Of a stretch of 64,000 nt of DNA, positions 1,695-57,409 are shown one piece after another. A model generated the notes under the pieces. It was not told where the DNA came from, searched no databases, and saw only the letters and a list, made by a program, of their open reading frames with translations. The stretch is taken from NCBI GenBank assembly GCA_013815775.1, contig JACDFN010000002.1, positions 128,717-192,716 of the forward strand, written 5' to 3'. Source of the stretch: Candidatus Saccharimonadota bacterium. Its GTDB lineage: Bacteria; Patescibacteriota; Saccharimonadia; Saccharimonadales; UBA10212. The position numbers were made by a program, and so were the translations under genes. Positions within the stretch are counted from its first letter, which is position 1; each line of letters begins with the position of its first letter.

Positions 1695-3108
1695 GTCCAG
1701 CAGCTTTATCCTCTAGCTCCAATCCTAGGTCCAGTAGCTGGGCTCTTATATCATCAGCGCTTTGCCAGTCTTTAGACCCACGAGCTGCTTCACGTTCAAG
1801 AATAAGTTTCTTTGTCTCTTCAGGTATATCGTCCCGGTCCAGTAGTCTAAGACCCAGACCATCATCTAGTTGCTTCAAAAATTCTTCAAATTGACCCAGG
1901 TCTTGTTTGCTCAGGCCTTTTTGTCCTACGTTGTCTATTAAATCGCTTAAAGCTGCTATCGCCAATGGAGTATTTAAATCATCCCGCAAGTGAGCTATAA
2001 ATTTCTGAATAAGAAGACTGAACATGTCGCTGGAATCGTTATTTTGTGACTGGGCTTGAAAACGTAAGTCAGCAAATGCTCTCAAGCTTTTAAGTCGGTT
2101 TTGGGCAGCCTCTAATGATTCCCATGAAAAATTCATATGGCTGCGATAGTGCGACTGCAGATACAACAGCCTTAGTGTTAAAGGATCGTAACCTTTTTTG
2201 ATGATATCGTCTAAGGTGTAATAAGTGCCAAGACTTTTGCTCATTTTTTCTCCATTAACTAAGAGATGTTCGTTGTGTATCCAGAAACGAGAGAGCTGCT
2301 TATCATAGGCCGCTTTTGTTTGGGCTATTTCGTTGGTGTGGTGGGTACCTATATGGTCTACCCCGCCGGTATGTATATCGAGTGGTTCACCCAGAGTTTC
2401 GTGGACTATCGCTGAGCATTCTAGGTGCCACCCTGGAAAACCTTTGCCCCAAGGACTATCCCAGTGCATAGAATGTCCAGCAAACCTACCAACCGTAAAA
2501 AACCAAAGAGCAAAGTCTTGGGGGTGACGCTTATTGCGATCCGTAACAACTTCTTTCCGGGCAGCAACCTCTTTCTCCTCTATTTTTTGCTTAGTCAGTA
2601 TTTCGTAGTCAGGAGCCTGCGAAACGTCGAAATAAATTGCTTCTTCAGTCTGGTAAGCAATTTTTTTATCCATAAGTAACATAATTAATGCAAGTTGAGA
2701 TTCAATGAAATCAGTTGCTCTGGCGTAGTTGTCACTGCGCTTTTTATCGGTGTATCCGTTGGGCGAAAGAATATTTAGTAAATTGCTGTCCCTCTTGAAG
2801 GCTTCTTCGTAAAATTTGGCGACCTCCCAGACAGACTTTCCCTCGCGGTTGGCTCCTTTCTCTAGTTTATCGTCACCTTCATCACCGTCGCTGGACAGGT
2901 GGCCAACATCAGTGATGTTCATCACTTGCTTTACGCTGTGCCCGGATAGCTCTAAAGTTCGTCGAAGGGTGTCGGTGAAAACGTAGGCCCGCAGGTTACC
3001 AATATGCGCAAAGTCATAAACGGTTGGGCCGCAGCTGTAAAGCATCACCTGATCTCCCCGCGGCTCGAAATGCTCAGTCTGCTTAGTAATAGTGTTGTAA
3101 AGCCTCAT
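1672..3108 (-). CDS. cysS: cysteine--tRNA ligase
   Basis: Class I aaRS signatures are present: HIGN (FAHIGNLR), KMSKS, CGPTVYD, GWHLECSA and HHTNEIAQ. Confidence 0.95.
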   Translation of the reverse strand: MRLYNTITKQTEHFEPRGDQVMLYSCGPTVYDFAHIGNLRAYVFTDTLRRTLELSGHSVKQVMNITDVGHLSSDGDEGDDKLEKGANREGKSVWEVAKFYEEAFKRDSNLLNILSPNGYTDKKRSDNYARATDFIESQLALIMLLMDKKIAYQTEEAIYFDVSQAPDYEILTKQKIEEKEVAARKEVVTDRNKRHPQDFALWFFTVGRFAGHSMHWDSPWGKGFPGWHLECSAIVHETLGEPLDIHTGGVDHIGTHHTNEIAQTKAAYDKQLSRFWIHNEHLLVNGEKMSKSLGTYYTLDDIIKKGYDPLTLRLLYLQSHYRSHMNFSWESLEAAQNRLKSLRAFADLRFQAQSQNNDSSDMFSLLIQKFIAHLRDDLNTPLAIAALSDLIDNVGQKGLSKQDLGQFEEFLKQLDDGLGLRLLDRDDIPEETKKLILEREAARGSKDWQSADDIRAQLLDLGLELEDKAAGPIWSRLS

Positions 3109-4121
3109 GCCCCGTGTTCCTCAAGCTCGTCAAGGAGCGATGAAGCGACATTTATTGCTTCTGCTTTAATTTCGTCGAAGCTTTGCCCGGTTTGAACTTT
3201 AAATCCGCTTGCGTATGGATGTCCGCCACCTCCGAAATGTTCAGCTATTTTATCGCTTATACTGCGCCCGTAGTTACTCCGTATCTTCGCAGTTACCTTC
3301 TTGTCTCGGTATACTTTGAAACATATGGCAATGTCTGTACCTTTGCCCAGGCGCATATCATCTATTACTAGCATTGAGGGGTTATAAAGAGGACTAAACT
3401 TCTCAATTTCTTCCCACGGAATGGTTACTGTGGCAATACGATTATTGCTATGAAACTCAACTCTTTGAAGCAATAAGCCCTTGTATCTTATCAGTTCGGG
3501 CTCTCGGCGCATTGTCGCTCGCCGGGCGCTATCAATTTCAGCCAATTTAATACCACCTTCTACAAGCTCGGCGACGGTATGGATTGATTTAGCTGTTGTG
3601 GCTTCGCTCATTAAACCCAAGCTATCACTCAGGATACCTATAGCTAAAAATTCCTTTGCTTGTTTATTCAGCGCCCAACCCAACTGCTTGGCGAGTCCGT
3701 AAATAATCTCTGTAGTGGCCACAGCAGGATGACAACACATAATTGCCGAGAAGCTTATGCTGGGTTTGGTGCTGTGATGATCGATAACAATACTCGGCTT
3801 AGAGGCTAGCCACGCCTTTGCTCCTGTTTTTTCTAGTTGTTCTAAAAGAGTATCGCTACTAGTATCAACAATTATGCTAGCATCAAAGCTTTTGGGGAAT
3901 TCTTTTATTACACGATCTGAACCATCTAGGTACTCTAGATAGGTAGGGAGGTCGACCCCACAGTACAAGGTAACCTTTTTACCTAACTCCTCAAGGATAT
4001 GTTCTAGCGCTAACGAACTAGCCAGGCTATCGGTATCTGGGTTATCGGCTTGTACAACAACAATGTGCTCGGCATCAGCTATAGCATCGGCTATAGCTCC
4101 AGCTTCACTATAATCTTCCAT
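3105..4121 (-). CDS. DHH/DHHA1 family phosphoesterase (NrnA-like), paralog 1
   Basis: DHH motif (VIDHHS) and DHHA1 motif GGGGHPYASG. The stop overlaps the cysS start (ATGA). Confidence 0.8.
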   Translation of the reverse strand: MEDYSEAGAIADAIADAEHIVVVQADNPDTDSLASSLALEHILEELGKKVTLYCGVDLPTYLEYLDGSDRVIKEFPKSFDASIIVDTSSDTLLEQLEKTGAKAWLASKPSIVIDHHSTKPSISFSAIMCCHPAVATTEIIYGLAKQLGWALNKQAKEFLAIGILSDSLGLMSEATTAKSIHTVAELVEGGIKLAEIDSARRATMRREPELIRYKGLLLQRVEFHSNNRIATVTIPWEEIEKFSPLYNPSMLVIDDMRLGKGTDIAICFKVYRDKKVTAKIRSNYGRSISDKIAEHFGGGGHPYASGFKVQTGQSFDEIKAEAINVASSLLDELEEHGA

Positions 4122-9202: not shown

Positions 9203-9715
9203 TTAAAGAGCTGCTTCGAGAGCAGCCCATTCAACATCGACTGTCGTGTCTTCGGGGACATTTACGCTAACTTGATCCCCTGGCTTTGCTTTGAAATAGG
9301 TCACGCTTGCAAGTAGCACTCTGTACTGCTTTCCGCCTACGTCCACAAAGTAATGTCCGTCTTTTTGATTCAAGACACCAACAATTTGCTTGCGGGGGAT
9401 GGGGCCGATTTGCTTATACATGAAAGCACCATCATCAGCGATGGTTAATTTTAAAATATCTCCTTGGACAAGCTTAGACTTACTAGCATAATTAGCTGGT
9501 ACCGGATATGTTTTACTGTCGCTTCCGACCATATTTTGACCATCAAATACACCCTCGATCACCTTACCCAGAGCTTGATCCTTTACCCTGTCTGCTAGCA
9601 CTGGATCGTCTCCCACAAGGCTTACTATTAGCTCTTTGGCTGCTGCTAGGCTTGTTTCTGCTTCACCAATTAAAGCTCGCAGCCGTTTAATTTGTTTTTC
9701 GGGTATTTCTGACAT
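9203..9715 (-). CDS. hypothetical protein (170 aa) between rplL and dnaX
   Basis: Long ORF with a GGAGAG SD 10 nt upstream of the ATG. It has an N-terminal helical segment and a beta-rich C-terminus. I recognise no family. Confidence 0.5.
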   Translation of the reverse strand: MSEIPEKQIKRLRALIGEAETSLAAAKELIVSLVGDDPVLADRVKDQALGKVIEGVFDGQNMVGSDSKTYPVPANYASKSKLVQGDILKLTIADDGAFMYKQIGPIPRKQIVGVLNQKDGHYFVDVGGKQYRVLLASVTYFKAKPGDQVSVNVPEDTTVDVEWAALEAAL

Positions 9716-9884: not shown

Positions 9885-10304
9885 CTATACTAGTTCCACC
9901 GTAGCGCCGGCATCCTCAAGTGCTTTTTTAGCAGCCTCGGCCTCGTCTTTAGTCGCTTTTTCTTTGACCGGCTTAGGCGCGCTGTCTACAATTGCCTTCG
10001 CCTCACCGAGCCCTAAACCGGTTATCTCCTTAACTGCTTTGATAACTGCAACCTTTTGGGCACCGGCGTCTTTAAGAACAACGTCGTATTCGTTCTTTTC
10101 TTCGGCTACTTCAGTACTCTCTCCGCTGCCTGAACCAGTAGCTGCAGCTGCAACTGGTGCAGCGGCGCTTACTCCCCAATATTCTTCTAAGAATTTCACA
10201 AATTTACTTATTTCCAGAGCGCTCATTTTGTCGAGCTTTTCTACGATTGTTGCGAACTCCTTGGGAACTTCTACGGAACTAACTTCATTATTATTTTCTG
10301 CCAT
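9885..10304 (-). CDS. rplL: 50S ribosomal protein L7/L12
   Basis: Ala-rich hinge followed by a C-terminal domain reading [27 protein letters not shown]...[10 protein letters not shown]. Confidence 0.95.
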
Positions 10305-10323
10305 TATATTTTCCTTTCAATTG

Positions 10324-10857
10324 TTATTGACTAATATTAGTTGCTCTTGCGCTTAACACATTCATAACGCCTCTTACGTTTCCAGCTAGAACCCTTACAA
10401 AGCTACTGGCTGGAGCCGCAAAAGTACCAACTAGTTGTGCTCGAAGCTGTAGTTTGCTGGGTAAACTCGCCAAAGTCTTGATTTCATCTGGCTCTAACAT
10501 TCGACCATCAGCGGTAAGTGCTCCTACAAATTCAAGTTGAGGTTCAATCTTAGCGAAATTTGCCAAACTTTGGGCGGGTGCAACCTCATCTTGAGAATTA
10601 AACGCGTACAAAAGTTGACCCTGGATTATCCCAGTATCAAGATCTTTGTAGTTTTCATTTTTACTAATTGCTTTTTTAAATAACCGGTTTTTAATAACTC
10701 GAATTTGCGTTCCGTTATTCCGGCTATCATTGCGCAACTGTTGCATTGATTTAACAGATGTACCAGGGTAACGCGCAAAAACGGTCAATTTTGATTCAGC
10801 CAGCAGATCACTCGCTTCGGCAACTATTTCTTTCTTCTTATCTTTACTTAAAGCCAT
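10324..10857 (-). CDS. rplJ: 50S ribosomal protein L10
   Basis: L10 family sequence directly upstream of rplL. A GGAG SD lies 6 nt from the ATG. Confidence 0.93.
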   Translation of the reverse strand: MALSKDKKKEIVAEASDLLAESKLTVFARYPGTSVKSMQQLRNDSRNNGTQIRVIKNRLFKKAISKNENYKDLDTGIIQGQLLYAFNSQDEVAPAQSLANFAKIEPQLEFVGALTADGRMLEPDEIKTLASLPSKLQLRAQLVGTFAAPASSFVRVLAGNVRGVMNVLSARATNISQ

Positions 10858-11082
10858 TAATTCTCCTTTCTTTTTTAGAGTATTTTTTACTTATTAGACT
10901 TCTTAGAAGTCGTTTACTATCCGCCAAAAATAAAAAAAATCTCTGGCTACTACAAAGATTAATTAGTGATTTATCCTAAAATATTCACAGCCTCGGTAGC
11001 AAAATTAAGTCACGTCACACGTGCCAGCTACTATCTTCGGTAGTTACTTAATAAATTACCATATAAGGGGTTGGGATGCAAG
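10858..11082 (-). promoter_or_regulatory. 225-nt untranslated region upstream of rplJ (possible L10 leader)
   Basis: Long non-coding gap containing small hairpins (GACTT-CTTAG-AAGTC at 10897-10911; CACGT-GTG-ACGTG near 11021-11037). I could not verify a match to a known L10-leader fold by eye. Confidence 0.25.
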
Positions 11083-13092
11083 TTATTTAAGAGGTTTTGC
11101 TGATGATATTTGGCGATAATTTCGTATATTTTTTTGTTTATTTGAGAGAACATCCGATGCCCCAACCGTAACCTTATCAAGTAAGTGTTCAGCGATTAAC
11201 GGGTGGGCTAATGCAAGCTGCTTATTCATTAGAGACATTAAAGACGAGTATGGCTGAGCTGCATTAATCTCTGGCTGCGAAGATTGCAAATCTTTTAGTG
11301 TCATGGAGAAAAGCCATCGCCGTTTATGTCCGAATAACGTGAAATACTCTAATATATCTTCTCTCCCCGCGCTTTGAACAGCGGAAAATAAACTAGAAAA
11401 TAACTCAAAAGACTCCATGAAAATATCATCAACCTTGGCGGCCGCTAGAAAGCCGGGTACATCATAGCCGTAGCGCGCGGTTAAGGGTTGGGACTGTAAG
11501 TCTTTAACATTATGCTGAGAGAAGAAGTGTTTCATGACTCCTTCATCTGCTAAAATGTCCCATCGATAGCGGAACTGGTCCAAGGCTTGATTGCGGGAAT
11601 TATCGAGGACTGACTTAAGGGCCCTTAATTTCTGCTCGTAAGACCATGTTTCAATTTCAGAAATAATCTCTGATCGTGATAAGTTTACTTTCGGGTATAT
11701 GCTATCGGCTAAAACTTCAAACTCATTTCGAGGCCACCAGGAAAGAAGTTGGACCGGTTCTGCAGTGACTATGCTTCGGGCTGTCACTAAGCCATCGATA
11801 AATAAAGATACATAATCATCAGTCTTGCTCGCACCTTTAGCTACCGGTCCGTCTAATAGTTTAAAAACATTCGGTCTTTGGCCATGGGCTGCTTGTCTTA
11901 ACTGTGAACAAAGCCACTTCACTTCATCTCGTGTATTAAATTTTAGGGAGTTGAGCATAGTGGCTATATCTAAACTTGAACCGCTAATTCGTAAAGTTAC
12001 TAGGGCACTCATAGGAGTAATTGAAAGAAGTACTGAGCTTATCGCTTCCTTATCAACTTTGGAATTTTTCAAAAGATGTTTTTTCAGCTCGCTACGTAGG
12101 AATGATAAACGTTCTAGGCTTTCTTTATTTAACCGATTAAGCGAAGAGCTAAGTCGAGGGAGCTTGTAATAACTTAATTCCGAATTATTCTGTTGAAGTT
12201 TTTGAGTCAATTTAATTCCTGGGAATCCTTGCAGTTGGCTTGCTGCGTATAGGCTAATATTGCTAAGTCTAAGCTCCAGGCTTTGCTCGTCTGGTTTACT
12301 GGGTATGTTGTCTTTAGGTGCTGAGATTACATGATCACTAAGCTTATCTAGGCGGATAACAGAGCCCTTACCTGTCTGTAATCGTCTAGGCGGTAGCAGG
12401 GGTTGCACGATTTGCCATATTTTATTGTTAATGTCTGGGACACTAAGAAGTTTATCAGCTTCAACGCAGTCCACAGCGTGAAAGTCTTTAGGAAAAAGTT
12501 GAGTTAAAAGATTATACGTTTTAACAGATTTACGTAGATGTTCAATGTCGGCTTCGTGTTCATCCCTCTTGCTGGTAGTATATTCACGGGTTACTTTCTG
12601 ACCGATTAATTGGTATGAAACTTCGGCAGGAACTTTTAAGAATATGTTTATACTTGGCCGGGGTATGCCCAGAAGGTTGTATTCCAGACTATCTTCCCAC
12701 AGAAAAAAACCTCTCTGCTCTACTTCATCTTGAAACTTAGCTCCTTGGTGAGCCATATTGGATCCGACGTAACGGTTTGACAAAACTACTTTTCCGGAAT
12801 CGATAGCACTACGAATTGCAGGAGCAGCCTCATATCGATCAAGAGCGTAGAACATGGAGGCTGTGTAAGGGCTAACTGAATTGGCTGGCCCGTAAACTCC
12901 GTTTAAGTACTGCTTAACGAAGTGACTAGAAGGCTGGTCATACCTTGGAAAATCAAAAACTTCTACATCATATCCCATAGCCTTCACACGCTCCGCCAGT
13001 AGTCTAAACTGAGTAGTTTTGCCAGAACCGTCCGCCCCTTCTAGAACTATAAACACCCCTTCTCCAGAAAAAATATTTTGTGCGTTGCTCAC
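11083..13092 (-). CDS. tmk: thymidylate kinase (N-terminal ~210 aa) fused to a ~430-aa C-terminal module with ThyX-like segments
   Basis: Tmk P-loop VLEGADGSGKTTQ, FPRY and SNRYVGSNMAHQ motifs. The C-terminal part resembles ThyX by eye, with RHR replaced by SQH. The GTG start overlaps the dcd stop (TAGTG). Confidence 0.75.
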   Translation of the reverse strand: MSNAQNIFSGEGVFIVLEGADGSGKTTQFRLLAERVKAMGYDVEVFDFPRYDQPSSHFVKQYLNGVYGPANSVSPYTASMFYALDRYEAAPAIRSAIDSGKVVLSNRYVGSNMAHQGAKFQDEVEQRGFFLWEDSLEYNLLGIPRPSINIFLKVPAEVSYQLIGQKVTREYTTSKRDEHEADIEHLRKSVKTYNLLTQLFPKDFHAVDCVEADKLLSVPDINNKIWQIVQPLLPPRRLQTGKGSVIRLDKLSDHVISAPKDNIPSKPDEQSLELRLSNISLYAASQLQGFPGIKLTQKLQQNNSELSYYKLPRLSSSLNRLNKESLERLSFLRSELKKHLLKNSKVDKEAISSVLLSITPMSALVTLRISGSSLDIATMLNSLKFNTRDEVKWLCSQLRQAAHGQRPNVFKLLDGPVAKGASKTDDYVSLFIDGLVTARSIVTAEPVQLLSWWPRNEFEVLADSIYPKVNLSRSEIISEIETWSYEQKLRALKSVLDNSRNQALDQFRYRWDILADEGVMKHFFSQHNVKDLQSQPLTARYGYDVPGFLAAAKVDDIFMESFELFSSLFSAVQSAGREDILEYFTLFGHKRRWLFSMTLKDLQSSQPEINAAQPYSSLMSLMNKQLALAHPLIAEHLLDKVTVGASDVLSNKQKNIRNYRQISSAKPLK

Positions 13093-13805
13093 TAATAACC
13101 CTCGATTCCTATAATCGGTTTAGGCATAGAGCGCTTGTCTTTGTAAGCTTTTGGTAGCATATGTTCCGGCCGCCAATTTCTGATTAGGCTATTTAAATTA
13201 GTACCAGTCTGATATTTACCACTGAAGCCTTGGTCCCTACCCTGCCCGTAACTTCCTTCGACTTCGCCTGTTTCATGAAAAATTATTTGAGCGATTCTTT
13301 CGCCGACGGGCAGAAGCATTAACTCGTTTTGATTAAGATTATAAATTTCTAGAGTCAACCTATTGATATATCCAGGATCAATCCATCCAGCATCAAAGCA
13401 CACTGCCAAACCGCTTCTTCCCCAGCTAGAGCGAGACTTGACCTCACATGCGCCAGGGGGTTTTATGCCAAAAAACTCGTGAGTATGCCCTAGGATTCGC
13501 TCTCCTGGTCGAATGGGAATAACCGGGTGATTTGCAGGAATACCGCTTAAAAGTTTGATACCGTTGTCGTCGCACCACTTTTTATGGGGTACAGCCTTAA
13601 GCGCGCCTTCGAAGTATCGTTTTACGTCCTTATTATCAAAGGGGTTATATACTGGATGATCCGCTGACCGCTCGGTTCTATAGTAGTAATGACCCAAAGT
13701 AACATCGAGGCTAGCATGCGACACATGCTTAGGTATAAAAGGCTCACATAATATATGTCCCGAGCTAAGTGCATCTCTTATTTGTTTGTTGCTAAACACT
13801 CCCAT
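13092..13805 (-). CDS. dcd: dCTP deaminase family protein
   Basis: 237 aa. N-terminal ..IRDALSSGHI..EPF....V.HASLDVTLG and the SRSSWGR..L / GW.DPGY pattern are typical of the Dcd/dUTPase-fold family. Confidence 0.8.
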   Translation of the reverse strand: MGVFSNKQIRDALSSGHILCEPFIPKHVSHASLDVTLGHYYYRTERSADHPVYNPFDNKDVKRYFEGALKAVPHKKWCDDNGIKLLSGIPANHPVIPIRPGERILGHTHEFFGIKPPGACEVKSRSSWGRSGLAVCFDAGWIDPGYINRLTLEIYNLNQNELMLLPVGERIAQIIFHETGEVEGSYGQGRDQGFSGKYQTGTNLNSLIRNWRPEHMLPKAYKDKRSMPKPIIGIEGY

Positions 13806-13859: not shown

Positions 13860-14834
13860 TTAAGGGTTTTCAGTTCGTATGCTTGGTCCCATGGTGCTAG
13901 TAATGTAAACGGTCTTAAAGTAGTTACCCTTCAGGCTACTGGGTTTTGCCGACTTTATACTAGAAAGAGCGGCTTGAGCATTTTGAACTAACTTATCGGA
14001 ACCAAAACTTGTCTTACCTATGCCCATATGTACAATGCCGGCGCTGTCAACGCGATACTCAACACGCCCCGCTTTAGCCTGTTTAACTGCCTTTTCAACG
14101 TCAGTAGTCACTGTTCCACTCTTTGGGTTAGGCATTAACCCTCTAGGGCCTAAAAAGCGTGCGTATTTACTAAGCCGAGGCATCATAGCTGGTGTAGCTA
14201 CTAAAATGTCAAAATCTATATCTTCCTTTTCCAGTTTAGCTTGAATTTTATCAGCTCCAGCTAGGTCTGCTCCTGCTTTGATAGCTTTTTGTTCATCGTC
14301 ACCTTCAACGAAAGCAACAATGCGTAGTGTTTTGCCTGTGCCAGCTGGTAAAACCACAATTTCACGAATATTTTGATCTGCTTGCTTAGGATCCACTCCG
14401 AGACTAACATGTAACTCTATTGTCGAATCGAAATTTGTTGTCGTAGTCTTAATTGCTAAGTCTATTGCCTCGGTCAGTGTGTAGGTCTTAGTCTTATCAA
14501 TTAGCTCAGAAGCTATTTTAAATTTTTTACCAGCTCGTTCAACTCGACTACGAGATGGTTGTTTAAATTTTTTAGGATTTTCCTCTTTACCTGTTTTGCG
14601 AGTTTCTTTTGCTAGCTTATCTTCAGTTTCTTTCACGGCTTTAGCGCTGCGCTTGCCCGCTTTAGCGGTGGCTTTGGGAATAGGCGGGTTGTCTTTCATA
14701 ACTTCTTCGGTCTGGAGCACCTCCACTTTATTTTCAGAACCATTTTTTGCGACCGACTTAGTATCAGTGGCCGGTTCCGGGGTTTTTTGTTTAGTAGCTT
14801 GTTCTCTTTTATTCGCTTTTTTGACTTCTGCCAT
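13860..14834 (-). CDS. rplA: 50S ribosomal protein L1 with a ~90-aa Lys/Glu-rich N-terminal extension
   Basis: The L1 core begins around ..RAGKKFKIASELIDKTKTYTLTEAIDL. The ATG at 14834 has a strong GGGAG SD 6 nt upstream. Confidence 0.9.
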   Translation of the reverse strand: MAEVKKANKREQATKQKTPEPATDTKSVAKNGSENKVEVLQTEEVMKDNPPIPKATAKAGKRSAKAVKETEDKLAKETRKTGKEENPKKFKQPSRSRVERAGKKFKIASELIDKTKTYTLTEAIDLAIKTTTTNFDSTIELHVSLGVDPKQADQNIREIVVLPAGTGKTLRIVAFVEGDDEQKAIKAGADLAGADKIQAKLEKEDIDFDILVATPAMMPRLSKYARFLGPRGLMPNPKSGTVTTDVEKAVKQAKAGRVEYRVDSAGIVHMGIGKTSFGSDKLVQNAQAALSSIKSAKPSSLKGNYFKTVYITSTMGPSIRTENP

Positions 14835-15921: not shown

Positions 15922-16317
15922 TTACTTTAAAATTACGTTCTTAAAAATTGCCCCAAGTGCTTTGTCAACGACAGCTACCATAGATCCAAAAATTATTGCA
16001 AAAATAAACACCGCTCCGGTAAGTCGCCAGGTTTCTCTCCTGTTTGGCCAAGTGACTTGGTTGACTTCACGCCACGAATTAATCAGATAGCTCGGTATTA
16101 ATTTCCTAAGACCTCGACCTATAAAACCAGCAAGACCGTAGAGAGGATTCGTTAAACGATTTCGCGGAAGTTTAAGCCTAAGAAAAGGCCGTTTTACTAA
16201 CCTAGAAGTACGCTTTACCCGACTTTTTTTAGAACTATTCTCTTTACTCCGGGTTATTTCAGCCCTCTCGCGTATGGTTGGGGCACTCTTGCGTAATCGC
16301 GGTTTTTTTTCTGCCAC
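15922..16317 (-). CDS. secE: preprotein translocase subunit SecE
   Basis: C-terminal SWREVNQVTWPNRRETW followed by a TM helix. I prefer the GTG at 16317 (GGAGAG SD 6 nt upstream) over the track's TTG at 16338, which lies in the U-tract of the upstream terminator. Confidence 0.85.
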   Translation of the reverse strand: MAEKKPRLRKSAPTIRERAEITRSKENSSKKSRVKRTSRLVKRPFLRLKLPRNRLTNPLYGLAGFIGRGLRKLIPSYLINSWREVNQVTWPNRRETWRLTGAVFIFAIIFGSMVAVVDKALGAIFKNVILK

Positions 16318-16336
16318 TAAAAACTCTCCCTTATTC

Positions 16337-16363
16337 AAAAAACCTACTCATCGTTAGAGTAGG
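16337..16363 (-). terminator. intrinsic terminator after the DUF45 gene
   Basis: Minus strand reads CCTACTC-taacgat-GAGTAGG followed by TTTTTTG. Confidence 0.55.
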
Positions 16364-18696: not shown

Positions 18697-19719
18697 TCAT
18701 TCGTCTACTAAGGACGTTACTTGTTTAATTGCGTCCTTTGTAGTCTTAGCTGTTAATTTAGCTCCAGCTGCAGGTTTGTGTCCGCCACCTCCCAATTGCC
18801 TGGCAACCTCCGCGACGTCTTTAACCCCAACGAGTGATCGAAATGAAACTCCGTAATAACCTTCACCGCCGACTGAATCCGGATATACTAAAAACCCCCA
18901 TTTATTATTTTCGAAATTACGGATGAACTGATTACCGAATAATTCACAGGCCTTTTTTAGATCAAGATGGGACTTTTTTGCTTTACGCCATTCCTCAGCA
19001 AACTCATCGGTGATAAAGGTGTAACTGTAGCCCTTACCACTACTTTTCATATTGCTTGCTAGGTGGCTCAGCGCTTCCAGTTCGTTTTTATTGTAGCTTT
19101 CTAATTCATTCTCCAGTTTTTCAATACTGGCTCCAGCATCAAGTAGTTCGCTTACAACTCGGAAGGTCTCCCTATATCCGGGATGATCAAACTTATGTCT
19201 CTGGGTATCGCTGATTATACCGAGTAAAGCAGTCTGGGCGTATCCCTTAGGCTTATTAAGTTTTAAGTCGTCAAAACACAGGACGTAAACCTCTTCGGCT
19301 GTAGCTGGCCTCTTGTTATTAATATAAACGTCTACTATATCCTTCCCTTCAGCTTCGTGATGATCTATAACGATGGTTTTAACATTATGCTGCTGAACGA
19401 AACCTTTAACCTGATCAGAATCGTTGCGGGACACCCTCTTGAAGGCCCCAGCATCTAGTAAGATTAAAAGATCTGGTCTAATTTTTTCTAGACTATCCGT
19501 TAAGGGCTGAAATTTTATTTGCACATATCCAGCTAGAAAGCTAAGATCTTGCGTAGGCTCTTCTTCTAGAATAATTTTAATTACTTTTTCTGGATAATTT
19601 TGCTGAAGAGTTGTAGCCAGTAGTAGGGCCGAACTAACCGCGTCAGGGTCAGGCGAGATATGTGAAGTTATTAAAACAGTCTGAGATGATAGAAGTAATT
19701 TCAAAAATTTTTTTTGCAT
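18697..19719 (-). CDS. DHH/DHHA1 family phosphoesterase (NrnA-like), paralog 2
   Basis: SPDPDAVSS, VIDHHE and GGGGHKPAAGAK motifs. Confidence 0.8.
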   Translation of the reverse strand: MQKKFLKLLLSSQTVLITSHISPDPDAVSSALLLATTLQQNYPEKVIKIILEEEPTQDLSFLAGYVQIKFQPLTDSLEKIRPDLLILLDAGAFKRVSRNDSDQVKGFVQQHNVKTIVIDHHEAEGKDIVDVYINNKRPATAEEVYVLCFDDLKLNKPKGYAQTALLGIISDTQRHKFDHPGYRETFRVVSELLDAGASIEKLENELESYNKNELEALSHLASNMKSSGKGYSYTFITDEFAEEWRKAKKSHLDLKKACELFGNQFIRNFENNKWGFLVYPDSVGGEGYYGVSFRSLVGVKDVAEVARQLGGGGHKPAAGAKLTAKTTKDAIKQVTSLVDE

Positions 19720-49923: not shown

Positions 49924-52900
49924 TTACACCTCTTCAGCAACCTGTGGATCTTGAGCTGAGCTCTTAATTGCCCTAGCGCCTGTTCCTACAGGTATTCTTC
50001 GTCCAAGAATTACGTTCTCTTTGAGGCCGTATAAATAGTCTACTTTACCGCTGGTGGCTGCTGCTATAAGCACCCGAGTGGTGTCCTGGAAGGAAGCTGC
50101 CGACAAGAAGGAGTCAGTGCTAAGTGATGCCTTAGTAATGCCTAGGAGTAGCTGATTATACTTAACTAGGTTTTTGTTATCTTTTGCCAAACGCTCGTTA
50201 GACTCAACAACAGCCAGTTTGCTAACAACATCACCAGTTATGAACTCGCTGTCACCGGCTTCTTCGATCTGAACTCGACTAAACATTTGTTTAACTATCA
50301 CTTCAAGATGTTTATCTGCAATAGTTTGCCCCTGGCTGGCAAATATATAGAGAATCTCGTTCATTATGTAGCGCTGAGTTGCTTCAATGCCCTGTAAAAG
50401 CATGAGCTCATGGAGGTTTATTGAACCATTGGACAACCTCTGTCCGGCAGATACTTCCTCACCGTCTTTAACTAAAATTTGCTTATATCCCGGTATCTCG
50501 TAACGTACCACGCTTTTGGCTGTTGGCTTGATGGTGATGGCAGTTTCGGTAATGTGTACCTTTCCTGTTATAGGCGATGTAATTGCTTCACTGCCGTCTT
50601 CGTGGGCCGCTACTGTGTCTCCTGCACTTACTTCGTCACTCTCGGACAATGTAGTCACGCGACCAGCTAGAGAAAGCTTGATAGATTTTTGTTCCTTCGC
50701 CGTTACTTGAACTACGTAATGGTCGCCTTCTTCCCAAACACTGGCATCACCGGCTATGTCTGTTAGATAGGCTTGACCCTTAGGAGTTCGTACCTCTAGA
50801 AGTTCTTCGACGCGTGTTAGACCTTGGGTAACATCGTCTCCAGCCGTTACAGCCCCCGCTCGGTGTTTAGAGTCAAGAGACAACTGAGTGCCCGGTTCAC
50901 CAATTGATTGCGCGGCAATAACCCCTATTGGGTAGTCGCTAGCTACGAGCTCTCCAGTAGCCAGGTCAATCCCGTAACATTCCCGACTTACTCCCCGTAC
51001 ATTAGTGCACGAAAGAACACTCATTATCCTAACTTTATCAATACTTGAATCTTCTTGTATGAGTTTAGCCGCCTCTGGTGTTATTAACTGGCCGCTTTTT
51101 ATATATTTTTTAACATTTTCAGCCGCGAAACGACCAATTAATCTATCTCCCAATCCTATACCTATAAGAGTGGCGTCTGAGCGAAAGATTGGAAAACCTG
51201 GATCTTCGGTTTCATAGCCCACTGTGAATACGTCTTGAGCAACGTCTACTAATCGTCTAGTTAAGTACCCTGAGTCGGCAGTACGAAGCGCTATATCGAT
51301 GAGAGACTTACGTGTTCCGCGGGTAGCCGTGAAGTACTCTAGCGGGGTCAAACCATATTTGTAATTTGATCGAACTGGAAGTTCGATTGCTCGGCCAGTG
51401 GTATCAGCAAACATACCCAACATTCCAACGCTTTTTTTCATCTGACTAATGTTTCCGCGCGCACCTGAAGCTACGGCTATTGACATGGTATTATCTTCGG
51501 TAGCAAACTGCTCTGAAAGTGATTTCTCAACTTGCTCATCAACATCTGTCCAAGTTTCTACAGTTAGTCTGTACCGTTCGTCGTCAGTGATGAATCCTGA
51601 ATTGTATTGCTTACTAATCTCTGTTGCTCTGCTTTCGCCTTCTTCAACAATTTTAGGCAATTGTTTCAAGTCTGAGAAATCATCCATGCCAATGGATATT
51701 CCCGATAGGGTAGCGACCTTAAACCCAAGGTCTTTAAGTTCATCGGCAATCTGAGCCGTTACATCCTGACCATACTTCTGATAAGTCATGGTCATTACAG
51801 CACCAAGTTTTTTATTTGTCATAGCTTCGTTTTGGAAGGGGAAGTCGTCTGGGAAGATCTCATTGAAAAACAGTCGTCCTACAGTAGTCTTTTGCAGTTC
51901 TCCTCTGAAGGGAACCTGTACTCGAGTTTGAAGACTGACGTTTCCGTCGTCAAATGCAATTACAATTTCTTCTATACGAGAAAAAGTTTTAACCTCTTTT
52001 TGAGCTCCAGGTCTCTCGTAAGTCAAGTAATAACAACCCAGAACAATGTCTTGTTCAACGTGGAGAATCGGCGAACCGTCTGCAGGCTTTAGTAAGTTTT
52101 TGTTAGCGGCCATTATATCTCTCGCTTCGGCCTGTGCAGCATCTGATAAAGGCAGGTGCACAGCCATTTGGTCTCCGTCAAAGTCCGCATTAAAGCCTTT
52201 ACAGACGAGAGGGTGAAGCTGAATAGCCTTACCTTCAATGAGGGTAGGTTGAAAAGCTTGAATGCTCAATCGGTGAAGGCTGGGAGCGCGGTTAAGCAGA
52301 ACATATTTTCCTTTAATGACTTCGTCTAGGGCGTCCCAAACAGCTGAGTCGCTGGATTCAATCATTCTGGTTGCACTGCGAATGTTATGTGCTAACTCTT
52401 GCTCAATCAGTCTGCCGATGACAAATGGTTTAAATAGTTCCAAAGCCATCATTTTAGGTAAGCCACATTGATGCATTTTTAGTTCAGGGCCAGCTACAAT
52501 TACGCTCCGGCCTGAATAGTCAACGCGTTTTCCCAGTAGGTTTTGGCGGAATCTTCCTTGTTTACCCTTAAGCATGTCAGATAAGCTCTTTAGACGGCGG
52601 CGCTGGCCTGTGGCAGCTACTGCTCGCCCAGATCGGGCATTGTTGTTATCAATTAACGCATCCACTGCTTCCTGCAACATGCGCTGTTCGTTACGCCGAA
52701 TAACTTCAGGAGCATTAAGTTCTATTAATTTCTTTAAACGATTATTACGATTAATAACTCGTCGGTACAAATCGTTTAAGTCGGATGTTGCAAAACGACC
52801 ACCAGTAAGCTGAACCATAGGTCTGAGGTCGGGTGGAATAACTGGTAGCGTGCTAACGCACAAACTGGAGGGCTTTATTCCGGCCCTTTGCATACTTTCA

Positions 52901-53739
52901 ATAAGTCGCAGTCGTTTCATTATTTTCTTTTTGCGTTGTCCTTTAGCGTCCTCGGCTTCTTTAGACAATGCTTTGATAAGCTTATCTAGGTCAACTGCCT
53001 CGAGCAGTTCTCTTAGTGCTGAACCCCCCATGCCTACACTTATTAAAGGCTGAAGGTCCTCGGGTAAATTGCGGTAGTCGGTTTCACTAAGTAAATTAAA
53101 TTTTACAAGGCTTGAAACCTGATTTTTAAATATCTCATGCTCACGAGCCAGTTCATCCAACTCTTTAGTACGAGCAGCAGCCAATTCTCGGATATTAGCA
53201 TCCTTCTTGTCGGCTTCTTTTTCATAGCGTGCACTAATAGCAGCCGTCGCGGCTACCAGCTGAGCATCGCGATCAGATTTGATCTTGTCGCGCTTAGATT
53301 CTTCAACCGTCTTAATGATGTAGCTAGCAAAATAAGCCACCCTCTCGAGATTTTTTACCGTTAAACCAAGTAGTAGACCTATGGCGCTGGGGGTTCCTCG
53401 CAAAAACCAGATGTGGGCTACCGGTGAGGCAAGACTAATGTGCCCCATTCGTTCGCGGCGAACTATGCTTCTGGTAACTATTTCTCCGTTTTTATCTACG
53501 GCAACCTCCCTTGATCTAATTCCCTTGTACTTGGCATCATGGGGATTGATATCTTTCACAGGACCAAAGATTCGTTCGCAAAAAAGACCGTCTCTTTCGG
53601 GTTTCTGTGTTCGATAATTGATGGTTTCAGGTTTGGTTACCTCCCCGTAACTCCAAGCCATAATATCGTCCGGACTAGCTATAGCCAGGCGAACTGCATC
53701 GAAGTCAGCAATATCGGTTCCCGAATTGTAATGTCGCAT
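49924..53739 (-). CDS. rpoC: DNA-directed RNA polymerase subunit beta-prime
   Basis: NADFDGD, RRERMGHI and GKRVDYSGRSVI motifs; 1271 aa. The start overlaps the rpoB stop (TAATG). Confidence 0.98.
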   Translation of the reverse strand: MRHYNSGTDIADFDAVRLAIASPDDIMAWSYGEVTKPETINYRTQKPERDGLFCERIFGPVKDINPHDAKYKGIRSREVAVDKNGEIVTRSIVRRERMGHISLASPVAHIWFLRGTPSAIGLLLGLTVKNLERVAYFASYIIKTVEESKRDKIKSDRDAQLVAATAAISARYEKEADKKDANIRELAAARTKELDELAREHEIFKNQVSSLVKFNLLSETDYRNLPEDLQPLISVGMGGSALRELLEAVDLDKLIKALSKEAEDAKGQRKKKIMKRLRLIESMQRAGIKPSSLCVSTLPVIPPDLRPMVQLTGGRFATSDLNDLYRRVINRNNRLKKLIELNAPEVIRRNEQRMLQEAVDALIDNNNARSGRAVAATGQRRRLKSLSDMLKGKQGRFRQNLLGKRVDYSGRSVIVAGPELKMHQCGLPKMMALELFKPFVIGRLIEQELAHNIRSATRMIESSDSAVWDALDEVIKGKYVLLNRAPSLHRLSIQAFQPTLIEGKAIQLHPLVCKGFNADFDGDQMAVHLPLSDAAQAEARDIMAANKNLLKPADGSPILHVEQDIVLGCYYLTYERPGAQKEVKTFSRIEEIVIAFDDGNVSLQTRVQVPFRGELQKTTVGRLFFNEIFPDDFPFQNEAMTNKKLGAVMTMTYQKYGQDVTAQIADELKDLGFKVATLSGISIGMDDFSDLKQLPKIVEEGESRATEISKQYNSGFITDDERYRLTVETWTDVDEQVEKSLSEQFATEDNTMSIAVASGARGNISQMKKSVGMLGMFADTTGRAIELPVRSNYKYGLTPLEYFTATRGTRKSLIDIALRTADSGYLTRRLVDVAQDVFTVGYETEDPGFPIFRSDATLIGIGLGDRLIGRFAAENVKKYIKSGQLITPEAAKLIQEDSSIDKVRIMSVLSCTNVRGVSRECYGIDLATGELVASDYPIGVIAAQSIGEPGTQLSLDSKHRAGAVTAGDDVTQGLTRVEELLEVRTPKGQAYLTDIAGDASVWEEGDHYVVQVTAKEQKSIKLSLAGRVTTLSESDEVSAGDTVAAHEDGSEAITSPITGKVHITETAITIKPTAKSVVRYEIPGYKQILVKDGEEVSAGQRLSNGSINLHELMLLQGIEATQRYIMNEILYIFASQGQTIADKHLEVIVKQMFSRVQIEEAGDSEFITGDVVSKLAVVESNERLAKDNKNLVKYNQLLLGITKASLSTDSFLSAASFQDTTRVLIAAATSGKVDYLYGLKENVILGRRIPVGTGARAIKSSAQDPQVAEEV

Positions 53740-56700
53740 TATTTAGACTCCTCTTCTTGGTTAGGCGCAATGTTTACTGTGTCATCAGTAGCTAGCTCAA
53801 CATCCCCCGAGATCGACAACCCTTCGTCCTCGCTAATACCAAATTCTTTAGCGACTTGCTCTACACTATCAGCGCCTACGTTAATAGGCTCAAGCGGGCT
53901 GATGGTGGGTATGTGCGCTGCTTCATTTTTAATGTTTTCAGCTAAAACTTTCTCTGCGTCAATTATCTGATTGTTCGCAAGTAAATCAACTTTGAGTCCG
54001 AGACCTTGAAGTTCTTTAACGAGTACGTTAAAGCTTTCTGGAATTTTAGGACCTTGAATTTCAGTACCCTTGATAATACTTTCATAGGCCTTGGCTCGAC
54101 CGTAAACATCATCTGATTTAATTGTCAGCATTTCCTGTAGGGTGTTAGCGGCACCATACGCTTCTAGCGCCCAAACCTCCATTTCTCCAAATCGCTGACC
54201 ACCGTTTTGGGCCTTTCCGCCCAACGGTTGCTGGGTAACCATTGTGTATGGTCCAGTAGAGCGGGCGTGGATTTTGTCAGATACCATGTGGTTTAGTTTG
54301 ATAATATACATACTGCCAACGGTAGTTCTCTCGGCAAAGGCTTCACCGGTACGTCCATCGTAAAGTTGTTGTTTGCCATCTTTGGGCAAACCGGCTTCTC
54401 CAAGAAGATCTTGTATTTTTTCGATTGGTATTCCGTTGAAAGCTGGACTTGCAACTTTAATACCAAGAGCCCTGGCTGCCATTCCAAGATGCGTTTCAAA
54501 CAGCTGTCCAATATTCATTCGGGACGGTACTCCCAGAGGGTTCAAAATAATGTCAACTGGTGTTCCATCTTCATTAAAGGGCATGTCCTCTACGGGTAGG
54601 ATTCTTGCAATCACACCTTTGTTACCGTGTCGGCCGCCTAATTTATCACCGACTGAAATCTTACGCATCTGGGCCACAAAAACCTGTATTTGCATAATCA
54701 CACCTGCCTTGAGTTCATGTCCTGAGGCTCTAGAAAATACTTTGACGCCCACTACCTTTCCGTGCCGGCCTGTACTCATTCGTTGAGAAGTATCGCGAAC
54801 TTCCTTAGCTTTTTCACCAAATATAGCTCGAAGAAGTCGTTCTTCGCTAGATAACTCTTGCTCGCCTTTTGGTGTTATTTTTCCTACTAGAATATCACCT
54901 GGATGAACCTCGGCACCTATGCGAACGATGCCATCTTCGTCAAGGTGTCTTAGAGCCTCTTCACTAACATTAGGAATATCTCTTGTTACAATTTCGGGAC
55001 CAAGTTTAGTCTCACGAACTTCAGTCATGTAGTCCACTATATGAATGGACGTTAGAGTATCGTCTTCCACCAACTCGCGAGAAATAATTATGGCATCCTC
55101 GAAGTTATAGCCAGCCCAAGGCATAAAAGCTGTTAGGAGGTCTTTCCCAAGAGCAAGCTCACCTCCGGCTATGCTCATACCTTCAATTAATGGATCACCC
55201 TCTTTGACTTTATCGCCTCGGTTAACCACTACAACTTGATTTATAGAGCTTCCTTCGTTGCTACGATTAAAGTGAATAGGTTCGTATTTAATAGACTTGC
55301 CATTAGAATACTTAACCATCACTTCGTCGGCATCCGCTTTAATAACTTCGCCGCTGCCGCTGGCAACAATAAGCTGCCCTGTATTTTGGGCTACTATACT
55401 TTCAAAACCGGTACCTACAATTGGTGCTTCTGGTTTAATCAACGGTACGGCTTGACGCTGTTGATTACTACCCATTAATGATCTAAGAACATAATTCTTC
55501 TCAATAAATGGAATCAGGCTAGCACTACTGCCGATAGTTTGACTCCGACTAGAGTCCATATTGGTCACAATATTGGCGTCTACCTCACCCGGTTCAAGCT
55601 TGTTACGAACGCTGACACGAGGGTCAATAAAATAACCATTCTCATCAAGGGCATTACCTGCTCCAGCTATAATCGCTCGCTCCTCCTCGGATGAATCAAG
55701 GTATACAATTTCATTTGTCACTTTGGCTTTAACGGGCCAGGTAATGCGTTCCTTAACGGTTGCCAGAGTCTTGGCGGCAGCTTCAGAAATTACAGCTCCC
55801 GATTTAACTATTACCTTGCCTTTTTCATTCTCTAGATCACTAGCTGCAATATGGCCAGCCGCTTGCTTGGCTGGAACGGCATTAATGACCCTCCTGTATG
55901 GAGTTTCTATAAAGCCATACTCATTTACTCTTGCGTAGCTAGCTAAATTAAGTACTAAACCGATGTTGGCTCCTTCGGGAGTTTCAACAGGACAGATGCG
56001 GCCGTAATGAGTTGCGTGGGCGTCACGAACTTCAAAACCAGCTCGTTCACGAGATAATCCTCCGGGTCCCATGGAACTTAGACGGCGCTTATGGGCAAGT
56101 TCAGAGAGAGGATTAATTTGATCCATAAACTGTGAAAGCTGACTGGATGCAAAAAACTCTCTCACTGCTGCAACTACCGGTCGCGCGTTGATTAACTGAG
56201 CGGGTGTAACGGTTTCAATCTCGCTCATGGACATACGGTCTTTGGCATTTCGTTCCATACGCAGCAGACCAATGCGAAATTGACGTTGAACCAGCTCTCC
56301 GACCAGCTTTACTCGCCTGTTAGAAAGCGAGTCAATTTCGTCCCCGGGTTCCTGGGTAACATTTAAACGAATAACTTCAGCAATTATGGCGCTTATGTCC
56401 TCAATGCGCATGATCCTGTTTTCGATTGTGTTATCCACGTCAAGGTTCAGTCGCTTGTTTAGCTTGTACCTGCCCACCTTGCCAAAGTCAAAGCGTTTGA
56501 AGTTATAGAACATGTTTTCGATTAAGCTACGGGCATTATCAACAGTGGCTAGATCTCCCGGACGTAGACGCCGATATACTTCAATTAATGCCTCATTCGT
56601 ACTCTTGCTGGGATCTTTCTCGAGTGTAGCTTCAATGTGCTTAACCTCACCTTGGTCTACGTGCTTAAAGGTATCCTTAATTTGTTCTTCACTCAAACCA

Positions 56701-57287
56701 AAGGCTTTTAGGAGTGTTGTGACAGCGAGTTTTCGCTTTCGGTCAATTTTGACGAATAGGGCTCCGGCTGCGGATGTTTCAAACTCCAGCCATGCTCCTC
56801 GAACAGGGATTACCTTAGCTCCGTAGAGATTGTGGGCACCGTGGGGTTCAGCAGTGAAGAATACTCCGGATGATCTTATCAACTGACTTACCACTACCCT
56901 CTCGGCACCATTTATTACAAAGGTTCCTCGACTTGTCATCCAGGGATAATCCCCCAAATAAATTTCTGATTCTTTAACTTCTCCAGTTACCTTATTTGTT
57001 AACTCGACTGTAGCTTTTAAAGGGGCGTCGAAACTGACATTATTCTCACGAGCCTCTGATTCGCTCATTTTGGGGTCTTCAAAGTGATAATCTTTAAAAC
57101 TAATACTTAGTTTTTGGCCGGTGTAGTCGTCAATTGGGCTAATTTCCGCCAATAGCTCTCCTAGACCTTCTTCTACAAACCATTGAAACGAGGAATTTTG
57201 GTGGTTTACAAGGTTCGGAGGACTAATTACGTCATCAGATTTTGTGTAGTGTGTTCGTTTTTGAGTAATATCGCTTTTTTTGGCCAT
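53739..57287 (-). CDS. rpoB: DNA-directed RNA polymerase subunit beta
   Basis: Conserved beta motifs are present (..GDKLGGRHGNKGV.., ..MNIGQLFETHLG..). I prefer the ATG at 57287 (MAKKSD..); TTG starts at 57290 and 57296 remain possible. A GGGAG SD lies at 57299-57303. Confidence 0.97.
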   Translation of the reverse strand: MAKKSDITQKRTHYTKSDDVISPPNLVNHQNSSFQWFVEEGLGELLAEISPIDDYTGQKLSISFKDYHFEDPKMSESEARENNVSFDAPLKATVELTNKVTGEVKESEIYLGDYPWMTSRGTFVINGAERVVVSQLIRSSGVFFTAEPHGAHNLYGAKVIPVRGAWLEFETSAAGALFVKIDRKRKLAVTTLLKAFGLSEEQIKDTFKHVDQGEVKHIEATLEKDPSKSTNEALIEVYRRLRPGDLATVDNARSLIENMFYNFKRFDFGKVGRYKLNKRLNLDVDNTIENRIMRIEDISAIIAEVIRLNVTQEPGDEIDSLSNRRVKLVGELVQRQFRIGLLRMERNAKDRMSMSEIETVTPAQLINARPVVAAVREFFASSQLSQFMDQINPLSELAHKRRLSSMGPGGLSRERAGFEVRDAHATHYGRICPVETPEGANIGLVLNLASYARVNEYGFIETPYRRVINAVPAKQAAGHIAASDLENEKGKVIVKSGAVISEAAAKTLATVKERITWPVKAKVTNEIVYLDSSEEERAIIAGAGNALDENGYFIDPRVSVRNKLEPGEVDANIVTNMDSSRSQTIGSSASLIPFIEKNYVLRSLMGSNQQRQAVPLIKPEAPIVGTGFESIVAQNTGQLIVASGSGEVIKADADEVMVKYSNGKSIKYEPIHFNRSNEGSSINQVVVVNRGDKVKEGDPLIEGMSIAGGELALGKDLLTAFMPWAGYNFEDAIIISRELVEDDTLTSIHIVDYMTEVRETKLGPEIVTRDIPNVSEEALRHLDEDGIVRIGAEVHPGDILVGKITPKGEQELSSEERLLRAIFGEKAKEVRDTSQRMSTGRHGKVVGVKVFSRASGHELKAGVIMQIQVFVAQMRKISVGDKLGGRHGNKGVIARILPVEDMPFNEDGTPVDIILNPLGVPSRMNIGQLFETHLGMAARALGIKVASPAFNGIPIEKIQDLLGEAGLPKDGKQQLYDGRTGEAFAERTTVGSMYIIKLNHMVSDKIHARSTGPYTMVTQQPLGGKAQNGGQRFGEMEVWALEAYGAANTLQEMLTIKSDDVYGRAKAYESIIKGTEIQGPKIPESFNVLVKELQGLGLKVDLLANNQIIDAEKVLAENIKNEAAHIPTISPLEPINVGADSVEQVAKEFGISEDEGLSISGDVELATDDTVNIAPNQEEESK

Positions 57288-57409
57288 CAACAGCAAGGCT
57301 CCCTTCCCATACGTTGTTATAAATTATGCGCTTTCGCGAAGACACTACGTTCGGCGTGCAAATATTTCCCCCATAGCAAGCACCAAAGTACACTACTTCT
57401 TAACATACC

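Follow-up and report, generated by a model that had tools for sequence, protein, structure and literature searches.

A thymidylate kinase with a decayed, probably non-catalytic tandem ThyX-like tail in a Saccharimonadia ribosomal-protein gene cluster

Introduction

The stretch of DNA analysed here (the window; 64,000 nt of contig JACDFN010000002.1 from a Candidatus Saccharimonadota bacterium) holds, inside a ribosomal-protein gene cluster, a dCTP deaminase gene (dcd) and directly after it a 669-aa open reading frame (ORF), here called tmkX, which databases name only 'thymidylate kinase'. Its thymidylate kinase (Tmk) domain is followed by a long tail, and the question raised by this locus is what the tail is and whether it still makes thymidylate. 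A preliminary description of the same DNA, made from its letters alone, had proposed that dcd is accompanied here by a Tmk fused to a degenerate, possibly tandem, module resembling ThyX, the flavin adenine dinucleotide (FAD)-dependent thymidylate synthase, and that the pair lies between rplA and rplJ; profile searches, structure prediction and synteny all support that proposal. Under its sole annotated function the gene would hide a 437-aa relic of a second enzyme, and metabolic reconstruction would go wrong either way, by transferring 'ThyX' from intact relatives or by ignoring the tail. The reading that we prefer, with a probability of about 0.7, is that an active Tmk sits on a decayed, non-catalytic tandem-ThyX scaffold.

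The fusion itself is already known, being common and automatically annotated in Saccharibacteria. The apparent novelty lies in recognising a decayed form that is still folded, in its repeated occurrence and in the question of the thymidylate source; our literature search found no paper on a Tmk–ThyX fusion, on tandem ThyX or on its decay in Saccharibacteria or candidate phyla radiation (CPR) bacteria.

Results

A dTMP kinase followed by two predicted ThyX folds

Both genes lie on the minus strand, and the coordinates, the 669-aa length and the TAGTG overlap given in the preliminary description were recovered in the ORF calls and in the sequence. The stop codon of dcd and the GTG start of tmkX have one base in common (TAT TAGTG AGC). 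The pair and the parts of the fusion protein are as follows.

13092..13805, minus strand: dcd, 237 aa, ATG start; dCTP deaminase of the dUTPase superfamily
11083..13092, minus strand: tmkX, the 669-aa ORF, GTG start; Tmk plus two ThyX-like modules
12448..13059, minus strand: Tmk domain, residues ~12-215; mycobacterial-type dTMP kinase
12283..12447, minus strand: linker, residues ~216-270, variable; predicted local distance difference test score (pLDDT) 40-60 over tail residues 1-38
11851..12282, minus strand: ThyX-like module 1, residues ~271-414; N-terminally truncated, predicted to be catalytically dead
11128..11754, minus strand: ThyX-like module 2, residues ~447-655; full-length ThyX fold, predicted to be catalytically dead

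The kinase domain was readily recognised. Pfam PF02223 (Thymidylate_kin) matched residues 17-208 with 78.9 bits (cut-off 27; E 5e-22), NCBIfam PRK07933 dTMP kinase matched the domain at E 4.9e-35, and the best PDB chains, 4unn and 1g3u (E 3e-19), were deposited as thymidylate kinase; both are presumably the mycobacterial enzyme, consistent with the PRK07933 match. The window protein has EGxDGxGK(T/R)T, FPRY, ALDR and (D/N)RYVxSN in common with these chains, and in the alignment with 4unn the P-loop (EGADGSGKTT), FPRY, ALDRY and NRYVGSN are all kept. Judging from these motifs, the domain is probably active as a dTMP kinase.

The tail alone (residues 233-669, 437 aa) had no Pfam or NCBIfam match, and neither Thy1 nor TIGR02170 appeared even at E≤1. 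A word-indexed protein search with it recovered only its own protein and a syntenic relative of 655 aa, and another such search only 4 proteins. Through an exhaustive HMMER search with two tails, 644 representative proteins were obtained at E≤1e-3, 220 of them at E≤1e-30, most of the 644 being 600-800 aa long. The profile check suggested in the preliminary description therefore gave no direct Thy1 match to the tail but succeeded through its homologues: Pfam Thymidylate_kin was found in 58 and Pfam Thy1 (PF02511) in 39 of 70 homologues, the best Thy1 match having an E value of 4.9e-40. In some homologues this match fell on the C-terminal module and in others on the upstream one, while P0088 had it on both; TIGR02170 (thyX) matched twice in each of P0081, P0114 and P0119. 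In addition, a profile built from 36 tails matched residues 74-255 of Mycobacterium tuberculosis ThyX (3gwc) via module 1 at E 1.5e-9. A two-sequence tail profile found only chance matches among the PDB sequences, and phmmer with an approximate Thermotoga maritima ThyX sequence as query had 0 matches in 152 family members. Alignment of module 1 with module 2 by hhalign (E 5e-4, probability 13%) is weakly supportive when taken alone.

An AlphaFold2 model of the tail, built with the 36-tail alignment, had a mean pLDDT of 84.6 and a predicted template modelling score (pTM) of 0.78 and consisted of two compact modules and a low-confidence linker. Foldseek of this model against the PDB gave 134 matches at E≤1e-3, and 50 of the 50 listed were ThyX. 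The best among those listed was T. maritima ThyX (1o26_A; E 5e-6, probability 1.00, TMt 0.65, 212 columns), which we assign to module 2 because 212 columns fit a full-length module. Module 1, modelled alone (residues 268-447; pLDDT 83.9), likewise had ThyX at 50 of 50 listed matches, the best of these being M. tuberculosis ThyX 2af6_A (E 3.7e-5, probability 1.00, TMq 0.64, 152 columns). Since the listed Foldseek matches of both models are all ThyX, both halves of the tail are ThyX folds, and the tail is almost certainly a decayed tandem ThyX. The Foldseek search proposed in the preliminary description thus came out in favour of its idea, its by-eye alignment with T. maritima ThyX agrees with the family alignment, and the earlier, weaker copy that it had suspected does exist, as a first ThyX module truncated at its N-terminus.

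Each module has the same fold as canonical homotetrameric ThyX (T. maritima TM0449, 1o26; M. tuberculosis, 2af6 and 3gwc), and the order and secondary structure of the modules are colinear with it. The window protein differs in carrying two modules on one chain, in being fused to Tmk, in its low identity (about 9-15%), and in lacking both the canonical RHR...S.RY motif and N.R and R174, the ligands of the flavin. The atypical ThyX of Corynebacterium glutamicum (3fnn, 3ge9) ranks among the top matches of module 1 by sequence and by fold; it has the ThyX fold but, unlike the window protein, is single-module and stand-alone. According to the titles of these entries, C. glutamicum ThyX is not required for thymidylate biosynthesis, ThyA doing the job; it is a precedent for a dispensable ThyX.

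Many decayed fusions, including P0002, P0004, P0006 and P0016, end in a short Lys/Arg-rich C-terminal tail (e.g. ...KKRRKK). The end of the window protein (11083-11127, minus strand) is a weaker Lys/Arg-rich version, …NYRQISSAKPLK.

Intact Tmk–ThyX–ThyX fusions occupy the same locus

ORF calls and Pfam matches gave the minus-strand order secE-nusG-rplK-rplA-dcd-tmkX-rplJ-rplL-orf170-dnaX in the window. A metagenome scan with intact tails yielded 359 relatives, from which 80 loci were kept; their fusion ORFs are ~780-860 aa long, and most of the loci, where the contig is long enough, have the order (nusG)-rplK-rplA-dcd-[fusion]-rplJ-rplL-orf170-dnaX. Decayed forms stand in the same rplK-rplA-dcd-fusion-rplJ-rplL-orf170-dnaX order in 6 loci from Saccharimonadia metagenome-assembled genomes (MAGs), and the window locus is identical in order to the intact-fusion loci. 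The 669-aa protein is the local orthologue, by synteny, of the Saccharimonadia Tmk–ThyX–ThyX fusion. The survey of architecture and synteny that the preliminary description had recommended therefore places Tmk–ThyX–ThyX at the same position in Saccharimonadia relatives; the splitting of rplKA from rplJL that it had described was confirmed as to position but is not a local insertion, the arrangement being conserved across the class.

The intact fusion has thousands of close relatives and is named 'thymidylate kinase/thymidylate synthase ThyX' by JGI, and likewise by NCBI, or 'FAD-dependent thymidylate synthase [Candidatus Saccharibacteria bacterium]'. It is about 770-800 aa long (e.g. P0119, P0081, P0173) and has the architecture, the rplA-dcd-[gene]-rplJ locus and the mycobacterial-type Tmk of the window protein, as well as the fusion-specific motifs WPRNE, W.Y..K, TPRYGY.VP, GHK.RW and HP. 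The two differ in that intact fusions carry 12 of 12 catalytic-type residues and modules fixed at 198 and 202 aa, compared with 0 of 12 in the window protein, which also lacks ~85 aa of the linker and the N-terminal part of module 1. The window tail is ~20% identical to intact tails, and the closest intact Tmk domains are 62-63% identical to that of the window.

Intact proteins P0081, P0098, P0114 and P0119 (729-781 aa) hold the ThyX signatures in a complementary manner across their modules. Module 1 has ...EWGR...EQSTRY... and an arginine before LPVA (R172, M. tuberculosis numbering), and module 2 has FRDLQRHR, N-A-R and a following R (R199), but Q at the R172 position. This division, read from the sequences, suggests a pseudo-tetramer in which two chains, each resembling a pseudo-dimer, would form half of the canonical sites; we found no solved structure or paper on such complementary half-sites. 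Tandem ThyX with complementary motifs was observed in loci L017-L096 (e.g. L019, 5001-6638) and in P0153 (L005, 8001-9602).

P0153 represents a stand-alone tandem ThyX (about 530-550 aa; also in the Acidimicrobiia MAG loci L015 and L016), which has two modules per chain, as in the window, and retains its motifs in the complementary manner of the intact fusions. The 533-aa P0153, whose contig also carries nuo genes, shares 35% identity with the tail of P0119 over 516 aa. Unlike the window protein, the stand-alone form lacks Tmk, keeps its catalytic residues and lacks the conserved residues that are specific to the fusion; phmmer of stand-alone tandem ThyX against the PDB gave no match. Chlamydia ThyX is of similar length.

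A few loci depart from the common pattern. In L030 and L092, which carry intact fusions, an extra stand-alone Tmk-like ORF (226-233 aa) lies between rplA and dcd. In L006 (2104-4293), the intact fusion P0114 directly follows rplA without dcd, and its N-terminal region falls below the Tmk profiles. The idea drawn from this locus, that dcd occurs only beside decayed forms, was rejected, as dcd is present in most of those among the 80 intact loci whose upstream sequence is long enough. Locus L011 (DATIIZ010000029.1) is labelled 'Candidatus Babeliales bacterium' and holds the full Saccharimonadia-type locus nusG-rplK-rplA-dcd-tmkX-rplJ-rplL-orf170-dnaX; the label is probably a binning or labelling error.

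None of the twelve scored catalytic-type residues remains in the tail

Catalytic-type residues were scored at 12 positions in 200 aligned family members, namely R, E, S, R, Y and R172 in module 1 and R-H-R, N, R and R199 in module 2 (M. tuberculosis numbering). The score was bimodal (12/12 in 72 sequences, 3 or fewer in 112, between these values in 16), and the window protein scored 0. In its module 1, the R, E-S-x-R-Y and R172 of intact relatives are all replaced or deleted. In module 2, the R-H-R of relatives is replaced by S525-Q526-H527 and their N.R by T598 and K600; R199 corresponds to a gap or I, and the R172 column has E, where nearly all members of the fused family have Q; T538-x-R540-Y541 is kept at S-x-R-Y, R540-Y541 being its R-Y. 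The residues retained in this module are Q535, T538, R540, Y541, G542, H589, R592, H630 and P631. The preliminary description had already read RHR as SQH and N.R as T.K and had doubted catalysis, and the score of 0/12 bears it out.

Loss of these residues goes together with relaxed constraint. At a Tmk identity of 0.6-0.7, the identity of module 1 was 0.72 in intact pairs versus 0.23 in decayed pairs, and that of module 2 was 0.70 versus 0.35. The segments of the tail also differ in length between the two forms.

Linker plus N-terminal part of module 1: about 130 aa in intact forms, about 46 aa in decayed forms
Module 1 core: fixed at 198 aa in intact forms, median 168 aa (range 122-191) in decayed forms
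Module 2: fixed at 202 aa in intact forms, median 193.5 aa (range 190-202) in decayed forms

Both deep clades of the Tmk domain hold intact and decayed forms, and for 34 of 108 decayed forms the nearest neighbour by Tmk domain is intact; the tail has therefore decayed several times over. The series from intact through intermediate to dead forms offers a natural opportunity to follow the dismantling of a multi-subunit active site whose fold persists.

These results make it very likely that the tail is not a thymidylate synthase. An alternative is that it is still an enzyme, either a non-canonical thymidylate synthase or one with a new pyrimidine-modifying activity, like the ThyX paralogue PolB. 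The preserved ThyX fold speaks for this, as do the retention and coupling of dcd, the supplier of the dU nucleotide, the lack of any other synthase in the ~84 kb scanned (see below) and the existence of ThyX paralogues with altered specificity (PMC5954106). However, the equivalents of all FAD ligands (RHR, N.R, R199) are gone from both modules, the bimodal score is what would be expected once selection on the site is switched off, constraint is relaxed with insertions and deletions, and decayed forms conserve nothing new, only part of what intact forms conserve. We consider continued catalysis highly improbable. The pyrimidine-modifying activity entertained in the preliminary description is unsupported, there being no newly conserved residues in decayed forms. 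Its 'fused thymidylate metabolon' fits the intact orthologues that occupy this locus but not the window copy. For the latter, the absence of all 12 residues, the relaxed constraint and the deletions favour its remaining suggestion, a pseudoenzyme or regulatory domain derived from ThyX and carried on Tmk.

Decayed tails keep a subset of the conserved residues of intact ones

Constraint on the decayed tails is relaxed but not absent. Conservation of at least 60% is seen at 73 tail positions of the decayed forms and reaches 95-100% at some of them, including P454, E457, K488, Y509, Q535, R540, G542, H589, R592 and H630. At 69 of these 73, decayed and intact forms agree in their commonest residue, the other 4 being conservative swaps, and no residue proved to be conserved in decayed forms only. 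In a spot check of four motifs, WPRNE, W.Y..K, TPRYGY.VP and GHK.RW were kept in the Tmk-fused family and not in stand-alone tandem ThyX. From this pattern we infer selection on the fold and surfaces of the fused protein, that is, on domain or subunit contacts or on a retained ligand or partner site, and not on ThyX chemistry.

The strongly accelerated divergence, greatest in module 1 (identity 0.23), the variable and shrinking module lengths, and the lack of newly conserved residues would also suit a tail that is functionless evolutionary debris and persists since clean deletions that leave Tmk unharmed are rare. Against this, more than 100 decayed clusters at 50% identity, of independent origin, all keep a tail of ~400 aa in very small genomes, its fold is predicted with high confidence, and many positions remain 90-100% conserved among decayed forms. 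Mere debris is thus improbable.

The same conserved residues raise a further alternative, in which the tail is a regulatory module that senses a ligand or docks a partner and so tunes Tmk (or Dcd), rather than merely holding the protein together. The TPRYGY loop, GHK.RW and HP would then serve to bind the Dcd oligomer or a pyrimidine nucleotide, whether dUMP, dTMP or dTTP. Even after the loss of catalysis, the S-x-R-Y loop, in T. maritima structures the dUMP-phosphate loop, has a nearly invariant R-Y (R540 95%, G542 100%, Q535 99%), and H589, R592 and H630 are nearly invariant too; the retained residues are typical of the Tmk-fused family and not of stand-alone tandem ThyX, and dcd is translationally coupled and co-conserved. 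Yet the residues that would complete the dUMP phosphate and uracil site (the equivalents of R172, R199 and R87/H91) are lost in both modules, and a domain interface explains the same conservation equally well. We regard a regulatory module as rather unlikely.

Dcd and the source of dTMP

Pfam PF22769 (DCD) covers residues 4-178 of Dcd with 111 bits (cut-off 27; E 7.6e-32), and TIGR02274 reached 92.5 bits against a cut-off of 92.8, 0.3 bits under. The best PDB relatives were 4xjc and 2qxx/4a6a/2qlp (E 7e-14 to 1e-12 for 4xjc and 2qxx), with 1ogh (E 5.5e-10) and 3gf0 also near, these being deposited as 'dCTP deaminase, dUMP-forming' or 'bifunctional deaminase/diphosphatase'; the Escherichia coli-type dCTP deaminase chain 1xs1 matched only at E 7.6e-4. 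The Dcd core KSRSSWGR...DPGY.NRLTLEIYN aligns with PDB dCTP deaminases. By sequence, Dcd is closest to the dUMP-forming bifunctional types (Methanocaldococcus jannaschii 1ogh; 2qxx, presumably the M. tuberculosis bifunctional dCTP deaminase:dUTPase), with which it has the catalytic core in common, although similarity alone does not decide the product. It differs from them in being 237 aa long with insertions, and its bifunctionality is only putative. The core SRSSWGR...DPGY.NRLTLE(I/V) is identical in decayed and intact lineages, and at comparable Tmk identity the identity of Dcd was 0.79-0.82 in decayed lineages versus 0.64-0.76 in intact ones.

Bringing these observations together, we propose that the ancestral cassette was dcd plus tmk-thyX-thyX, placed between rplA and the L10 leader, and that it encoded a short path from dCTP through dUMP and dTMP to dTDP. 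In Saccharimonadia that still have it, the dcd–tmk–thyX–thyX cassette in the ribosomal-protein cluster would be a compact dCTP-to-dTDP route; organisms carrying it are unable to make nucleotides de novo. In the lineage of the window, synthase function would have been lost, with both modules still ThyX-folded, all FAD- and dUMP-binding residues gone, the N-terminal third of module 1 lost and the modules drifting much faster than in intact relatives. What remains is probably an active Tmk on a non-catalytic tandem-ThyX scaffold, which, by analogy with ThyX, might dimerise into a pseudo-tetramer, holding two Tmk domains together and/or docking a partner. For scaffolding or docking as the retained role of the tail, the chances seem to us about even. 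This organism would then have to obtain its dTMP by salvage or through a non-orthologous synthase whose gene lies elsewhere.

Several points weigh against this proposal. Loss of the canonical residues does not strictly exclude non-canonical chemistry, and the scaffold role is argued from analogy and from the pattern of conserved residues. In addition, dcd is translationally coupled to tmkX and is as conserved in decayed as in intact lineages, and dUMP therefore seems still to be wanted. Finally, a replacement thymidylate synthase was not found in the Pfam-scanned ORFs of the window or 10 kb beyond each end (~84 kb), and thymidine kinase and dUTPase were not found there either. The apparent continued need for a dU nucleotide (or for removal of dUTP) points to another thymidylate synthase, or to salvage, encoded elsewhere in the genome; a replacement synthase is plausible because horizontal acquisition of thyA by groundwater Patescibacteria has been published (PMC12455944).

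The repeated decay raises the question of where these epibionts get their thymidylate. Lineages with decayed tails might have no thymidylate synthase at all and depend on thymidine or dTMP from the host, the conserved, non-catalytic tail being kept as an obligatory partner, structural or regulatory, of Tmk (perhaps also of the coupled Dcd). We hold this to be possible but doubtful; if true, the tail would be a pseudoenzyme that has evolved repeatedly and that marks a stage at which Saccharibacteria became metabolically dependent on their hosts.

Neighbouring genes and other features of the window

The dcd–tmkX pair is flanked by the following features.

13860..14834, minus strand: rplA, 324 aa, Lys-rich N-terminal extension; upstream neighbour, the same in all related loci
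10923..11058, minus strand: ribosomal protein L10 leader, Rfam RF00557, 54.8 bits (gathering score 44), E 6.7e-7
10324..10857, minus strand: rplJ, 177 aa; downstream neighbour
9203-9715, minus strand: orf170, 170 aa, between rplL and dnaX, without a Pfam match
15922-16338, minus strand: ORF in the secE position, 138 aa, long basic N-terminal extension

The RF00557 match is full length (1-138) and lies between tmkX and rplJ, 65 nt upstream of the rplJ start, so that the dcd–tmkX pair stands upstream of an intact rplJL control region. The synteny of rplJ is common to the related loci, and its orthologue in locus L001 matches Pfam Ribosomal_L10. Promoter and terminator scans gave counts not above those in shuffled sequence. 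RplA has a Lys/Glu-rich N-terminal extension of ~95 aa ahead of the L1 domain, and in related loci the stop-to-stop ORFs that match RplA, where complete, are likewise long (about 300-376 aa). The product of orf170 shows strong conservation (phmmer E values of about 1e-86 to 1e-102), and the gene is syntenic in most of the examined Saccharimonadia loci reaching that far. The secE assignment rests only on position and on a C-terminal hydrophobic segment.

Unlike in most bacteria, rpoB-rpoC does not follow rplJ-rplL (9885-10857, minus strand), rplL being followed by orf170-dnaX-dnaB; judged by ORF sizes and positions, rpoB-rpoC apparently lies ~40 kb away (49924-57296, minus strand), ahead of rpsL-rpsG-fusA. 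The window also carries two paralogues of DHH/DHHA1 (NrnA-like) phosphoesterases, at 3105-4121 and 18697-19719, both on the minus strand, which may have a role in nucleotide scavenging.

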